Virus record (IMG/VR): IMGVR_UViG_2634166457_000015
Direction: 5' to 3' (one strand)
Source: a virus
Taxonomy: Duplodnaviria > Heunggongvirae > Uroviricota > Caudoviricetes
DNA: 4,570 nt
The notes under the pieces were generated by a model that did no database searches, was not told the DNA's origin, and worked only from the letters and a program-made list of their open reading frames with translations. Positions 64 through 4,570 of this stretch are shown here, piece after piece (position 1 is the first letter of the stretch; each line of letters opens with the position of its first letter). Position numbers and translations under genes: made by a program.

Positions 64-761
64 TGCAGGATATCCGGCAGGAAACACTGAATGAATGCAC
101 CCGTGCGGAGCAGTCGGCCAGCGTGGTGCTCTGGGAAATCGATCTGACAGAGGTTGGTGGAGAACGTTATTTTTTCTGTAATGAGCTGAATGAAAAAGGG
201 GAGCCGGTCACCTGGCAGGGGCGTAAGTATGAGGCATACCCGATTGACGGCAGCGGCTTTGAGATGAACGGCCGGGGCAGCAGTGCCCGCCCGTCGCTGA
301 CGGTGTCCAATCTGTTTGGCCTTGTCACCGGGATGGCGGAGGACCTGCAGAGTCTGGTGGGGGCCACGGTGGTCCGCCGCCGGGTGTATGCCCGTTTTCT
401 GGATGCGGTGAATTTCGTTGCGGGCAATCCGGAGGCGGACCCGGAGCAGGAGCTGAGTGACCGCTGGGTGGTGGAGCAGATGTCGCAGCTGACAGCCATG
501 ACGGCCTCGTTTGTGCTGGCTACACCGACCGAGACGGACGGAGCGCTGTTTCCCGGTCGCATCATGCTGGCGAACACCTGTATGTGGGATTACCGGGGAG
601 ATGAATGCGGGTATAACGGTCCTGCGGTGGCGGATGAGTTCGATAAACCCACCACCGATATCCGTAAGGACAGATGCAGCAAGTGCATGCGCGGGTGTGA
701 GATGCGCGGCATGGTGGCTAATTTTGGCGGTTTCCTTTCCATTAACAAACTTTCGCAGTAA
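63..761 (+). CDS. L: Tail tip assembly protein L (gpL family, with C-terminal Fe-S cysteine cluster)
   Basis: Complete 232-aa ORF, ATG 63 to TAA 759..761. The N-terminus MQDIRQETLNECTRAEQSASVVLWEIDLTEVGGERYFFCNE and C-terminus GNFGGFLSINKLSQ are recognisable as lambda gpL from memory. Cysteines at residues 173, 182, 205, 208 and 212 (nt 579..698). It sits between M and K as expected. Confidence 0.93.
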   Translation: MQDIRQETLNECTRAEQSASVVLWEIDLTEVGGERYFFCNELNEKGEPVTWQGRKYEAYPIDGSGFEMNGRGSSARPSLTVSNLFGLVTGMAEDLQSLVGATVVRRRVYARFLDAVNFVAGNPEADPEQELSDRWVVEQMSQLTAMTASFVLATPTETDGALFPGRIMLANTCMWDYRGDECGYNGPAVADEFDKPTTDIRKDRCSKCMRGCEMRGMVANFGGFLSINKLSQ

Positions 762-766
762 ATCCA

Positions 767-1510
767 ATGACACAGACAGAATCAGCGATTCTGGCGCATG
801 CCCGGCGGTGTGTGCCTGCGGAGTCGTGCGGCTTCGTGGTGAGAACGCCGGAGGGGGAGCGGTATATCCCTTGTGTGAATATCTCTGCAGAGCCGGAGGC
901 GTATTTTCGTATTGCACTGGAAGACTGGCTGCGGGCAGAGATGCAGGGGGAGATTGTGGCACTGGTCCACAGTCATCCCGGTGGTCTGCCCTGGCTGAGC
1001 GAGGCCGACCGGCGGCTGCAGATAAAAAGTGCACTGTCCTGGTGGCTGGTCTGCCGGGGGGAAATTCATAAATTCCGCTGTGTGCCACATCTGACAGGAC
1101 GGCGCTTTGAGCACGGGGTGACGGACTGTTACACGCTGTTCCGGGATGCCTACCATCTGGCGGGAATTGATATGCCGGATTTTGAGCGTGAGGATGACTG
1201 GTGGCGCAACGGTCAGAACCTTTACCTGGACAATATGGCGGTCACCGGCTTTTACCGGGTGCCCCTGTCCTCTGCACAGGCGGGCGATATCCTGCTGTGC
1301 TGCTTTGGCGCATCGGTGGCCAATCATGCCGCCATTTACTGCGGCAACGGTGAACTGCTTCACCATCTGCCTGAACAACTGAGTAAACGGGAGAGGTATT
1401 CCGAAAAATGGCAACGACGAACGCATTCTGTCTGGCGTCACCGCCACTGGCACGCATCTGCCTTCACGGGGATTTGCAACGATTTGGCCGCCGCCTCAGC
1501 CTGTATGTGA
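767..1510 (+). CDS. K: Tail tip assembly protein K (JAMM/MPN metallopeptidase-like domain fused to NlpC/P60-like domain)
   Basis: 247-aa ORF, ATG 767 to TGA 1508..1510. A JAMM-type motif HSHPGGLPWLSEAD (H-x-H-x7-S-x2-D) lies at nt 968..1009. An NlpC/P60-type Cys sits in DCYTLF (Cys codon 1127..1129), with His residues in NHAAIY and ELLHH downstream. The start is only 5 nt after the L stop and has no clear SD, so translation is probably coupled. The 3' end overlaps I by 103 nt. Confidence 0.88.
   Translation: MTQTESAILAHARRCVPAESCGFVVRTPEGERYIPCVNISAEPEAYFRIALEDWLRAEMQGEIVALVHSHPGGLPWLSEADRRLQIKSALSWWLVCRGEIHKFRCVPHLTGRRFEHGVTDCYTLFRDAYHLAGIDMPDFEREDDWWRNGQNLYLDNMAVTGFYRVPLSSAQAGDILLCCFGASVANHAAIYCGNGELLHHLPEQLSKRERYSEKWQRRTHSVWRHRHWHASAFTGICNDLAAASACM
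1389..1396 (+). promoter_or_regulatory. Shine-Dalgarno-like element for I (GGGAGAGG), inside the K coding sequence
   Basis: A purine-rich GGGAGAGG lies about 11 nt upstream of the ATG at 1408. The spacing is on the long side. Confidence 0.35.
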
Positions 1511-2088
1511 ACACGGCAGCGGAAGCCATCCGGGCGCTGTCGATGCAGATACCGGGATTCCGCCGTCAGATGAACGAAGGCTGGTACCAGATACGTATTG
1601 CCGGTGATGACACGGCACCGGAGGCGGTGTACGCCCGTCTTCACGAACAGCTGGGTGAGGGGGCGGTCATCCACATTGTGCCGCGACTGGCCGGGGCCGG
1701 AAAGGGTGGACTGCAGATTGTGCTGGGGGCGGCGGCCATCGTGGGGTCGTTCTTCACGGCCGGGGCATCAATGGCGTTATGGGGTTCAGCCCTGGCAGCC
1801 GGTGGTTTTTCTGCCACCACGATGCTGTTTTCACTGGGGGCCAGCATGATTCTGGGTGGTGTGGCTCAGATGCTGGCCCCGAAGGCTAAAGTACCGGAGT
1901 ACAAAAGCACGGATAACGGCAGACAGAACACGTACTTTTCCTCGCTGGATAACATGATTGCCCAGGGGAACCCGATGCCGGTGCCTTACGGTGAAATGCT
2001 GGTTGGCTCCCGGCGAATCTCCCAGGACATCAGCACCCGTGATGAAGGCGGTGACGGGAAGGTGGTGGTTATCGGGCGGCAGGCATAA
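1408..2088 (+). CDS. I: Tail tip assembly protein I (N-terminal ubiquitin-like beta-grasp domain, then Gly/Ala-rich hydrophobic segment)
   Basis: 226-aa ORF, ATG 1408 to TAA 2086..2088. ARICLHGDLQRFGRR, AEAIRAL, GAVIHIVPRLAGAGKGG, NTYFSSLDNMIAQGN, YGEMLVGSR and GKVVVIGR are recognisable as lambda gpI from memory. Its first 103 nt lie inside K in a different frame, the same overlap arrangement I recall for lambda K/I. Confidence 0.9.
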   Translation: MATTNAFCLASPPLARICLHGDLQRFGRRLSLYVNTAAEAIRALSMQIPGFRRQMNEGWYQIRIAGDDTAPEAVYARLHEQLGEGAVIHIVPRLAGAGKGGLQIVLGAAAIVGSFFTAGASMALWGSALAAGGFSATTMLFSLGASMILGGVAQMLAPKAKVPEYKSTDNGRQNTYFSSLDNMIAQGNPMPVPYGEMLVGSRRISQDISTRDEGGDGKVVVIGRQA

Positions 2089-2093
2089 AACAT

Positions 2094-2130
2094 AAAAAAT
2101 CCCGCAGTGCTCACGGACAGGAACTGCGGG
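2094..2130 (-). terminator. Intrinsic-terminator-like hairpin plus U-run, read on the minus strand
   Basis: CCCGCAGT (2101..2108) and ACTGCGGG (2123..2130) are exact reverse complements, giving an 8-bp stem with 6 G:C pairs and a 14-nt loop. On the minus-strand RNA the stem is followed by A-UUUUUU (plus-strand A-run 2094..2099). On the plus strand there is no U-run after it, so it is directional. The loop is longer than is typical for a terminator. Confidence 0.4.
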
Positions 2131-2196: not shown

Positions 2197-2224
2197 ATTA
2201 TTAGCGCCACAGTCAGTGTGTGAA
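2197..2224 (-). promoter_or_regulatory. Candidate sigma70 promoter on the minus strand (-35 TTCACA, 16-nt spacer, -10 AATAAT)
   Basis: Read on the minus strand, TTCACA (plus 2224..2219) matches TTGACA at 5 of 6 positions and AATAAT (plus 2202..2197) matches TATAAT at 5 of 6, with a 16-nt spacer. The predicted start is near plus coordinate 2190, transcribing leftward. Found by eye and not scored. Confidence 0.25.
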
Positions 2225-2326: not shown

Positions 2327-4570
2327 ATGGGCAAAGGTGGCGGCAAGGCGCACACGCCGGTAGAGGCAAAGGACAATCTTAAGTCCACGCAGATGATGAG
2401 CGTGATTGATGCCATTGGTGAAGGGCCGATTGAAGGTCCGGTGAAGGGGCTGCAGAGTATCCTGGTGAACAAAACCCCGCTGACGGACACGGACGGTAAT
2501 CCTGTGATACATGGTGTGACAGCGGTCTGGCGCGCCGGGGAGCAGGAGCAGACACCACCTGAAGGCTTTGAGTCCTCCGGGGCGGAAACCGCACTGGGCG
2601 TGGAAGTGACGAAGGCAAAGCCGGTGACGCGCACCATTACGTCCGCGAACATTGACCGCCTGCGGGTCACCTTCGGGGTGCAGTCACTGTTGGAGACCAC
2701 CTCAAAGGGCGACCGTAATCCCTCTTCTGTCCGACTGCTGATTCAGTTACAGCGTAACGGTAACTGGGTGACGGAAAAGGATGTCACCATTAACGGCAAG
2801 ACCACCTCGCAGTTTCTGGCGTCGGTGATTCTGGATAATCTGCCTCCCCGTCCTTTTAACATCCGGATGGTCCGGGAGACAGCGGACAGCACCTCGGACC
2901 AGCTGCAGAATAAGACGCTCTGGTCGTCATACACCGAAATCATCGATGTGAAACAGTGCTACCCGAACACGGCGATTGTGGGGCTGCAGGTGGATGCGGA
3001 GCAGTTTGGCGGTCAGCAGATGACGGTGAACTACCATATCCGCGGTCGCATCATCCAGGTACCGTCAAACTATGACCCGGAAAAACGCACGTACAGCGGC
3101 ATCTGGGACGGCAGCCTGAAACCGGCATACAGCAACAACCCGGCCTGGTGCCTGTGGGACATGCTGACTCACCCGCGCTACGGCATGGGAAAACGTCTGG
3201 GGGCGGCAGACGTGGACAAATGGGCGCTGTATGCCATTGCGCAGTACTGCGACCAGACGGTCCCGGATGGTTTCGGGGGCACAGAGCCGCGGATGACCTT
3301 TAATGCGTACCTGTCACAACAGCGTAAGGCGTGGGACGTTCTCAGTGATTTCTGCTCGGCGATGCGCTGTATGCCGGTATGGAACGGCCAGACGCTGACG
3401 TTCGTTCAGGACCGCCCGTCGGATGTGGTGTGGCCGTACACCAACTGCGATGTGGTGGTGGATGATAACGGCGTGGGGTTTCGCTACAGCTTCAGCGCCC
3501 TGAAGGACCGCCACACGGCGGTGGAGGTGAATTACACCGACCCGCAGAACGGCTGGCAGACCTCCACGGAACTGGTGGAAGACCCGGAAGCCATACTGCG
3601 CTACGGGCGCAACCTGCTGAAGATGGATGCGTTCGGTTGCACCAGTCGCGGTCAGGCCCACCGTGCCGGGCTGTGGGTGATAAAGACCGGACTGCTGGAA
3701 ACGCAGACGGTGGATTTCACGCTCGGGTCACAGGGGCTGCGTCACACACCCGGTGACATTATTGAAATCTGTGATAACGACTATGCCGGGACCATGACCG
3801 GCGGACGTATCCTGTCCATCGATGCCGCCAGCCGCACCCTGACACTGGACCGTGAGGTGACCCTGCCGGAGACAGGTACATCGACGGTGAACCTGATTAA
3901 CGGCAGCGGTAAGCCGGTGAGTGTGGACATCACCGCACACCCCGCGCCGGACCGGATACAGGTCAGTACCCTGCCGGATGGCGTGGCGACATACGGTGTG
4001 TGGGGACTCTCCCTGCCGTCACTGCGTCGTCGCCTGTTCCGCTGTGTTTCCATCCGGGAAAACACGGACGGCACCTTTGCCATCACGGCGGTGCAGCACG
4101 TACCGGAAAAAGAAGCCATCGTGGATAACGGGGCCAGCTTTGAGCCGCAGTCAGGCACCCTGAACAGCGTTATTCCACCGGCAGTGCAGCACCTCACGGT
4201 GGAGGTGAGCGCGGCTGACGGCCAGTATCTGGCACAGGCGAAATGGGACACGCCGCGGGTGGTGAAGGGGGTGCGCTTCAGTCTGCGACTGACCAGCGGA
4301 AGCGGAGAAGGCAGCCGTCTGGTGACCACCGCCATCACTGCGGATACAGAGCATCGTTTCAGTGGTCTGCCGCTCGGGGAATACACCCTGACAGTCAGGG
4401 CAATTAACAGTTATGGCCAGCAGGGCGAACCGGCCACCACCACGTTCAGGATTAATGCACCTGCGGTACCCGCCACGATTGAGCTGACACCGGGCTATTT
4501 TCAGATAACAGCGGTCCCGCGTCTTGCGGTGTATGACCCGACGGTACAGTTTGAGTTCTGGTTTTCGGAG
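2327..4570 (+). CDS. J: Host specificity protein J / central tail fibre (tip attachment protein), N-terminal 748 codons, truncated by the window edge
   Basis: ATG at 2327 opens a frame with no stop through base 4570 (2244 nt, exactly 748 codons). The translation begins [22 protein letters not shown] and contains [116 protein letters not shown] and [29 protein letters not shown], all recognisable as lambda gpJ from memory. It is missing from the ORF track only because it lacks an in-window stop. The C-terminal receptor-binding region lies outside the window. Confidence 0.95.

Follow-up and report, generated by a model that had tools for sequence, protein, structure and literature searches.

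The window analysed here, a stretch of 4,570 nucleotides (4.57 kb), carries four genes on the plus strand in the order L-K-I-J, as read from its open reading frames (ORFs) and their Pfam matches. Gene L (positions 63–761, 232 amino acids) encodes a minor tail or hub protein (PF05100, 1.6e-92) and is followed by K (767–1510, 247 amino acids), assigned from the ORF list and Pfam as a tail-tip assembly protease, by I (1408–2088), a tip plug or hub insertion protein whose ORF opens with ATG at 1408 and runs for 226 codons to a TAA stop at 2086–2088, and by the 5′ part of J (2327–4570), a central tail fibre or tip attachment protein that leaves the window at its end and matches the Pfam domains FNIII-A_GpJ, Phage-tail_3 and Ig_J. 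The 3′ end of K and the 5′ end of I overlap in different frames over 103 nt (1408–1510, plus strand). Together these genes are the tail-tip module of an Escherichia coli Stx-type lambdoid prophage. As a separate observation, the spacer between I and J (238 nt, compared with 60 nt in lambda) holds a conserved antisense small-RNA unit, which is probably EcOnc22-24. HnrS (EcOnc10-12) was discarded as its identity, since in Sakai Sp9 those loci follow Rz, a lysis gene. PasA, PasC and PasD were discarded because of their location near Q and the lysis genes, and the svsR paper offered no matching context. When all 4,570 nt were scanned against Rfam at E ≤ 1, nothing matched.

On sequence comparison, I is an orthologue of the lambda tail tip assembly protein I (gpI), and an ordinary copy of it. 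Residues 1–224 align with residues 1–223 of PDB chain 8iyk_I (phmmer E = 5e-95), and residues 15–97 match profile positions 3–83 of 83 in Pfam PF06805, Lambda_tail_I (3.3e-16; 59.9 bits against a gathering cut-off of 23.8). The lambda chains 9e7m_Ia and 9e7m_Ic, in which the C-terminal 90 amino acids are modelled, match residues 137–223 (E = 1.7e-37), and 9l9p_A and 25vf_9 are further homologues among PDB entries. The likeness to lambda gpI and gpK (PDB 8IYK, 8IYL, 8K35, 8XCG and 9E7M) is collinear over the full length, with 68% global identity for I, and takes in the three-part layout, the PR[LV]AGA..GG tail, the hydrophobic helices, the plug domain, the K-I overlap and the L-K-I-J order. The differences, AGAKSGG in lambda where I reads AGAGKGG and a two-residue insertion in the hydrophobic segment, make I only an allelic variant of lambda gpI. 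ATG 1408 is the sole canonical start that retains strands β1 and β2 of the ubiquitin-like domain described below; distant homologues of I start at the position of residue 14, and within the overlap (1408–1510) conservation relative to lambda is 23/34 in the I frame and 26/34 in the K frame. The PGAP start, GTG at 1507, drops residues 1–33 of I, and this start and at least four others in public databases cut the ubiquitin-like domain short in E. coli prophage records numbering in the thousands. Databases also contain natural fusions of K and I (P0007, P0019, P0084 and P0100), which are missing the N-terminal portion of the JAB domain of K and seem to be gene calls affected by frameshift or recombination.

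The K protein combines a Prok-JAB domain (residues 3–105; PF14464, 1.2e-14) with an NlpC/P60 domain (residues 111–224; PF00877, 2.8e-13). The JAMM-type peptidase motif that the first-pass annotation attributed to K is present and intact: the zinc-site motif H-x-H-x7-S-x2-D is matched exactly by regular expression (HSHPGGLPWLSEAD, K residues 68–81, plus strand 968–1009), and the upstream catalytic glutamate, Glu19 in PAESCG, was read in the sequence at 821–823 on the same strand. The JAB homologue 2kks_A aligns with K with the catalytic residues retained; this distant JAB domain was the sole structural match, and the search turned up no experimental structure for K, either alone or in complex with I.

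The same annotation had read the N-terminal part of I as a ubiquitin-like β-grasp and named structure prediction as a check, and such a prediction returned that fold. With an alignment of 80 sequences, AF2 confidently models residues 14–95 (1447–1692, plus strand) as a β-grasp of the ThiS/MoaD type, with pLDDT values of 87–93 over residues 14–92, strands at 14–19, 29–33, 60–64 and 87–92, and helices at 37–47, 51–57 and 71–78; beginning with residue 96, pLDDT drops to less than 50, and confidence is low overall (45–62) across residues 96–226. The best Foldseek matches of the domain were MoaD, SAMP1, CysO, ThiS, Urm1 and ubiquitin, and almost all of the top 40 were MoaD, ThiS, SAMP, Urm1 or ubiquitin; the sulfur carriers and modifiers ThiS, MoaD, CysO, SAMP and Urm1 fit it best (TMt 0.65–0.77; 0.73 for the MoaD 6jc0_A). 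MoaD, whose C-terminal sequence is PPVTGG, likewise has a conserved glycine four residues past a conserved proline, where the last strand ends. Unlike in these proteins, the glycine is internal in I, which continues for about 130 residues further, and unlike their systems the window encodes no E1-like adenylating enzyme (no ThiF/MoeB domain was detected by Pfam in the ORFs L, K, I and J of the 4.57 kb) and gives no sign of thiocarboxylation or conjugation.

The Gly/Ala-rich hydrophobic stretch that had been described directly after a Gly-Gly pair is where it was placed, is uncharged and is conserved in homologues. It occupies residues 102–157 (1711–1878, plus strand; nucleotides 1711–1875 translate to LQIVLGAAAIVGSFFTAGASMALWGSALAAGGFSATTMLFSLGASMILGGVAQML) within the longest run of I free of D, E, K, R and H (residues 100–158), and its 56 positions hold zero charged residues and 22 glycines or alanines (39%). 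With 22.9% charged residues in the rest of I, the chance of 56 uncharged residues is ~5e-7. In a set of 68 homologues sampled from clusters at 50% identity, the segment is uncharged in 42/68, and its median length and median G+A content are 51 amino acids and 37%. Kyte-Doolittle maxima over 19 residues (1.64–1.66) fall at residues 100–118 and 139–157, AF2 places low-confidence helices at 102–117, 122–129 and 138–153, and among the glycines G107 and G144 show no variation and G151 hardly any. The segment corresponds to helices H1 and H2 of lambda gpI, for which insertion into the outer membrane has been proposed (PMC11101478, PMC10721106), and of the two characters earlier suggested for it, membrane-interacting and glycine zipper, the former agrees with this match. 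The latter was rejected, as residues 102–157 contain no strict GxxxG and the count of 13 [GAS]xxx[GAS] motifs is what 5000 shuffles give (12.7 ± 1.9, P = 0.54); the label should not be carried forward. The remainder of I (residues 158–226; 1879–2085, plus strand) is the C-terminal plug and β-strand domain (TAPI-C), near-invariant at F177, N182, G187, P191, Y194, G195, G200 and S205, and in lambda this part of gpI, threaded through gpJ, blocks the lumen of the tip.

The pairing of a ubiquitin-like domain with a JAB peptidase, and the cleavage of I by K, are already known. Iyer, Burroughs and Aravind predicted in 2006 that the JAB domain of K releases the ubiquitin-like domain of I (PMC1779556), and a 2025 talk from the Davidson laboratory, according to a meeting report that does not state the cut site, demonstrated gpK cleavage in lambda both biochemically and genetically (PMC12908700); a literature search for a full paper from that laboratory on gpK and gpI found the meeting report only. 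Cryo-EM of virions shows only the hydrophobic helices and C-terminal plug of gpI, reportedly resolved from residue 101 onward (PMC11101478), gpK is missing from lambda virions (PMC10721106), and in F-pyocins, N-terminal peptides from the homologue were detected by mass spectrometry solely in tips stalled during assembly (bioRxiv 10.64898/2026.02.24.707460). We hold it very probable that I is a three-part precursor from which K removes the ubiquitin-like prodomain during assembly, leaving the rest to plug the tip. Identity, fold, motifs, conservation and gene context in this reading come from the present analysis, and cleavage, checkpoint, plug and membrane insertion from the lambda and F-pyocin literature. 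The three parts would be a removable prodomain with the ThiS/MoaD-like ubiquitin fold (residues about 14–95), two uncharged Gly/Ala-rich helices (about 102–157) and a plug and β-strand domain threading into J and L (about 158–226). During tip assembly I would join J, with L, after which K, a non-structural JAB metalloprotease with an NlpC/P60 domain, would cut the flexible tail just past the ubiquitin fold, a cleavage that reportedly depends on the tip complex. Release of the prodomain would license the next step, in which the tube and the C-terminus of the tape measure dock. In the virion the second and third parts of I would form a trimer that plugs the tip lumen and holds the tape-measure C-terminus; upon receptor binding the plug would open, and the hydrophobic helices would, by the published proposal, insert into the outer membrane.

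Where K would cut is a narrower question, and it turns on the glycines that follow the β-grasp. Residues 92–101 of I read PRLAGAGKGG and comprise a tail motif, P92-R-L-A-G96-A97 (1681–1698, plus strand), defined by family conservation, and a short flexible linker, G98-K-G100-G101 (1699–1710, plus strand), ending in the Gly-Gly encoded by GGT GGA at 1705–1710; both candidate C-terminal glycines, G96(-A97) and G100-G101, are internal to the protein. The first-pass annotation had likened this Gly-Gly to the C-terminus of ubiquitin, and while the pair is indeed present, its conservation argues against it as the equivalent residue. Across 72 diverse homologues, P92 is found in 72/72, G96 in 70/72 (97%) and A, S or G at position 97 in 67/72, compared with 29/72 for G100 and 58/72 (81%) for G101; among the 68 cluster-derived homologues, P-x-x-x-G occurs in 66/68 and the GG dipeptide in 39/68 (57%). 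The family motif P-x-x-x-G-[A/S] directly follows the last β strand, and the linker varies in length among homologues (inner spacing 9–18). Sequence alignments set G96 opposite the last residue of the CysO-like 4n6e_B (90 of 90), G80 of MoaD and G75 of ubiquitin; individually these alignments are weak (HMMER E ~0.9, hhalign probability ~5%), and they disagree by a single residue. The Gly-Gly was also rejected as a statistically special feature: I holds 4 GG against 3.45 expected at 12.4% glycine, and GG within 10 residues past the last strand arises in 12% of shuffles. From these alignments and counts, G96(-A97) is more likely than G100-G101 to be the counterpart of the ubiquitin C-terminus in I, and we lean towards G96(-A97) as the scissile bond as well.

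The suggestion that K cuts exactly after G100-G101, in the manner of a deubiquitinase acting at ubiquitin G75-G76, so that mature I starts at L102, is possible but doubtful. It would suit JAMM enzymes, which typically cleave past a C-terminal glycine, and it draws on the occurrence of GG at the same positions here and in lambda, on the retention of G101 in most homologues and on a lambda virion model that reportedly begins at about residue 101 (PMC11101478). Against it stand the limited conservation of G100 and of the dipeptide across the family, the absence of GG from the homologue of solved structure 25vf_9, which reads ...PLVIGSKQSGLFQ, the absence of GG enrichment over composition, and the near-universal G96, the glycine that aligns with the ends of ubiquitin-like proteins. 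The same virion model also points the other way, because residue 101, if truly modelled in lambda virions, places the cut N-terminal to it. Of the earlier proposal that K cleaves I after Gly-Gly, K-dependent removal of the domain thus agrees with the literature (PMC1779556, PMC12908700), and the site after G101 is disfavoured (PMC11101478).

As to which domain of K makes the cut, we think it improbable that the NlpC/P60 domain, a papain-like cysteine peptidase, is responsible and that JAB serves only as a module binding the ubiquitin-like domain. Some phages flank I with a K that has NlpC/P60 only, Iyer et al. write of processing ‘by the peptidase domains’ (PMC1779556), and lambda K is annotated in RefSeq as 199 amino acids, compared with the intact 247 here, without the first ~48 residues that include the JAMM glutamate. 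However, the absent residues are encoded in an adjacent frame, so that a one-base frame problem appears to lie behind the short annotation, the JAMM motif is fully intact in K here, and the meeting report calls the relevant gpK domain deubiquitinating (PMC12908700). We give very little credence to the view that the ubiquitin-like domain stays attached, flexible and invisible to cryo-EM while K targets something else, such as peptidoglycan through its NlpC/P60 domain: that domain is present, and the cryo-EM papers go no further than calling the N-terminus unresolved (PMC10721106, PMC12617516), but gpK cleavage has been reported biochemically and genetically (PMC12908700), the N-terminal peptides of the F-pyocin homologue occur only in stalled tips (bioRxiv 10.64898/2026.02.24.707460), virions contain no gpK (PMC10721106), and a JAB next to a ubiquitin-like domain with a conserved glycine is a recurrent pairing (PMC1779556). 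Equally remote is a second role for the β-grasp freed by a cut at G96(-A97) and then ending in a glycine like those of MoaD and ubiquitin, for example as a diffusible chaperone or timer in the assembly of further tips, or as a modifier attached to a phage or host protein.

I and K have partial parallels in other systems. The F-type pyocin protein PA0640 (THIP), which occurs with the gpK homologue PA0639, is a distant family homologue, likened here from publications (bioRxiv 10.64898/2026.02.24.707460; PMC12874032): particles show just the C-terminal part of this tip plug protein, two hydrophobic helices are predicted for it, and proteolytic removal of its N-terminal region serves as a checkpoint, but it comes from a tailocin rather than a phage and its sequence has strongly diverged. 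JAMM/MPN+ deubiquitinases acting on linear ubiquitin-like fusions (Rpn11 and CSN5, and prokaryotic JAB proteins by ThiS/MoaD fusions) resemble K in that a JAB of the form E...HxHx7Sx2D adjoins the gene of its ubiquitin-like substrate, with predicted release of that domain from a C-terminal extension (PMC1779556), and differ in that the JAB of K is fused to NlpC/P60 and that in the phage its action would time the assembly of the virion, in place of a role in signalling or sulfur transfer. The plug domain of phage T5 pb3 occupies the same position and is likewise a trimeric plug that closes the tip lumen, with outer-membrane contact proposed (PMC10721106), but it is an insertion inside the hub protein rather than the product of a separate gene and has no ubiquitin-like prodomain.

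The arrangement in this prophage is thus real but not new, as the prediction dates from 2006 and experimental reports of it have followed, and with the pairing described, cleavage reported in lambda and a proteolytic checkpoint shown in F-pyocins it carries little weight as a discovery. What it offers to work on this family of tail-tip proteins is a target for mutagenesis in mapping the cut, namely G96/A97, ahead of the conspicuous Gly-Gly.

The window spans four collinear plus-strand genes, identified from open reading frames and Pfam matches: L (63–761; Phage_tail_L, 1.6e-92), K (767–1510; Prok-JAB, 1.2e-14, and NlpC/P60, 2.8e-13), I (1408–2088; Lambda_tail_I, 3.3e-16) and, from 2327, the 5′ 748 codons of J (FNIII-A_GpJ, Phage-tail_3 and Ig_J). 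Together they constitute the lambda tail-tip assembly module. At the DNA level it shares 95–97% identity with the tail modules of lambdoid E. coli prophages, Stx-converting ones among them; of 5426 complete E. coli genomes, 4575 contain matches, the median being three copies per genome. I is collinear with lambda gpI at 68% identity, and published findings on lambda gpI and gpK therefore transfer directly to it.

Annotation of the I start is inconsistent, with near-identical proteins in public databases having at least five N-termini (226, 209/210, 204, 197 and 193 aa). In the closest genome, the RefSeq pipeline (PGAP) begins I at GTG 1507, giving 193 aa and removing strands β1 and β2 of the ubiquitin-like (Ubl) domain. 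Distant homologues begin at the position of residue 14, directly before strand 1, residues 14–33 are required for a confident AlphaFold2 model of the N-domain, and no canonical in-frame start other than ATG 1408 precedes strand 1 here. This codon, also the start in the first-pass annotation, is therefore the best supported, and the resulting 103-nt K/I overlap (1408–1510) is dual-coding, with both frames conserved relative to lambda. AlphaFold2, given an alignment of 80 sequences from diverse homologues, predicted a confident domain at residues 14–92 (block pLDDT 87–93), ordered as strand 14–19, strand 29–33, helix 37–47, helix 51–57, strand 60–64, helix 71–78 and strand 87–92, with confidence <50 from residue 96 on. 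Foldseek matches of this domain in the PDB were MoaD (6jc0_A, TM 0.73 on target), SAMP1, CysO, ThiS and Urm1, followed by many ubiquitins; model and matches alike bear out the beta-grasp fold proposed previously. The PDB also contains two further solved chains named 'putative (phage) tail assembly protein', 9l9p_A and 25vf_9 (199 and 200 aa), which are homologous to I and whose deposited sequences contain the Ubl domain.

Nucleotides 1711–1875 encode the Gly/Ala-rich hydrophobic peptide that the first-pass annotation had located, at exactly these coordinates, after a Gly-Gly. The uncharged run covers residues 100–158, and 56 consecutive uncharged positions have a probability of about 5e-7 given 22.9% charged residues in the remainder of I. 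The segment is conserved across 68 near-full-length homologues drawn from 50%-identity cluster representatives (median length 51 residues, median Gly+Ala 37%), 42 of which carry no charged residue in it. The suggested glycine zipper is ruled out, as the segment lacks any strict GxxxG and has as many small-xxx-small motifs (13) as its shuffled versions (mean 12.7 ± 1.9).

The Gly-Gly itself (G100-G101, nt 1705–1710) ends the decapeptide PRLAGAGKGG at residues 92–101; its position, like every coordinate of the earlier description, was exact. I contains four GG dipeptides (3.45 expected from composition), and 12% of shuffled I sequences place one ≤10 residues from the last strand, so that Gly-Gly alone is no more than composition predicts. 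Among 72 diverse homologues, P92 and G107 are invariant, G96 is conserved in 70, position 97 is A, S or G in 67, and G101 and G100 are conserved in 58 and 29, respectively. The motif P-x-x-x-G occurs in 66/68 homologues, while a GG dipeptide among the nine residues following it occurs in only 39/68; the G96-to-G107 linker varies in length, and the homologue of solved structure 25vf_9 reads ...IRIVPLVIGSKQSGLFQ, without GG. Position 83 of the I domain profile aligned to residue 89 of the 90-residue CysO-like 4n6e_B (an alignment weak alone), and G96 therefore falls on the C-terminal residue of that protein. Using hhalign, G96 was placed opposite MoaD G80 and ubiquitin G75, in alignments that are individually weak. 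All three placements agree within one residue, also with the onset of model disorder. Based on this conservation, the concordant weak alignments and the disorder onset, we read I ...H-I-V-P-R-L-A-G96-A97 as the counterpart of ubiquitin ...H-L-V-L-R-L-R-G75-G76, with G100-G101 belonging to a short variable linker. In the ubiquitin-like C-terminus proposed earlier, the conserved glycine is G96 rather than the GG. We infer, with a slight preference, a cut at G96/A97; cleavage exactly after the GG, as first suggested, is possible but appreciably less probable, and the lambda model, reported to start at residue 101 (PMC11101478), fits cleavage at G96/A97 or following G100, but not cleavage after G101.

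The protease assignment follows published work, in which a Ub-like domain with a conserved C-terminal glycine, a glycine-rich region and a separate C-terminal domain were described beside a K carrying JAB and NlpC/P60 domains, with JAB probably liberating this domain through cleavage at the most C-terminal of its glycines (PMC1779556). In the window, K carries a JAMM motif, as the first reading had recognised; it is an exact H-x-H-x7-S-x2-D at residues 68–81 (HSHPGGLPWLSEAD), with Glu19 upstream. K also bears the NlpC/P60 domain, which is improbable as the active peptidase in place of JAB. That the Ubl domain is never removed is highly improbable, being contradicted by a 2025 meeting report summarising work from A. 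Davidson's group, in which gpK is reported to cleave the domain off lambda gpI (PMC12908700), and by mass spectrometry of F-type pyocins, in which N-terminal peptides of the gpI homologue PA0640 were found in assembly-stalled tips, not in mature particles, and the protein was visible only from residue 127 (bioRxiv 10.64898/2026.02.24.707460).

The lambda RefSeq record annotates K at 199 aa, and the first ~45 JAB codons (MTQTESAILAHARRCAPAESCGF...), including the catalytic Glu, are out of frame with it. When lambda NC_001416 14120–14299 is compared with window 755–935, a single-base discrepancy around window nt ~905 accounts for this; the reference carries either an erroneous sequence or a frameshift of the lab strain, and K of the window is intact. 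The I–J spacer (2089–2326) is 238 nt, against 60 nt in lambda. Its minus strand carries a promoter-like TTCACA, 16 nt, AATAAT (2224..2197) and, about 95 nt downstream, a GC-rich hairpin with a T-run (2130..2094). This block is kept in seven diverged Stx-type phages and between I and J of Sakai prophage Sp15. It matched no Rfam model. Tree et al. (2014; PMC4104026, Table S2) reported there an antisense Hfq-bound peak, EcOnc22, seen at about 85 nt on northern blots and destabilised without Hfq, with homologues EcOnc23 and EcOnc24 in Sp14 and Sp11; the ~95-nt unit very likely corresponds to these sRNA candidates, the coordinate match being uncertain as the Sakai assembly version changed. On the plus strand, a strong terminator-like hairpin (2262–2285; 10 bp, 6 GC) followed by TGTTTTTGTG lies within the late tail operon, ~40 nt before the start codon of J. 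Most aligned relatives share it, and read-through would presumably need Q antitermination. Sakai Sp9 (L011:8148-8773) is annotated with a shortened L-like ORF, then spacer and J, without K or I, and databases hold L-I and K-I fusions (P0003, P0007, P0019, P0084, P0100); such cases have the appearance of deletion or frameshift products from the tail modules of decaying prophages, not of designed fusions.

The initial observation is thus confirmed and its interpretation, already published, largely right; the corrections are the conserved glycine, G96 instead of the GG, and the absent zipper. Identity, fold, motifs, conservation and context of I rest on our own evidence; its processing and timing are taken from the literature. 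By cryo-EM, lambda virions contain gpI, not gpK (PMC10721106); gpI residues 135–223 (PMC10721106) or 134–222 (PMC12617516) were modelled as a plug, a trimer that holds the C-terminus of the tape measure. Two transmembrane-like helices were predicted in the F-pyocin gpI homologue (PMC12874032), and the hydrophobic helices H1 and H2 of lambda gpI are stated to vanish upon opening, with insertion into the outer membrane proposed (PMC11101478). [quoted passage not shown]
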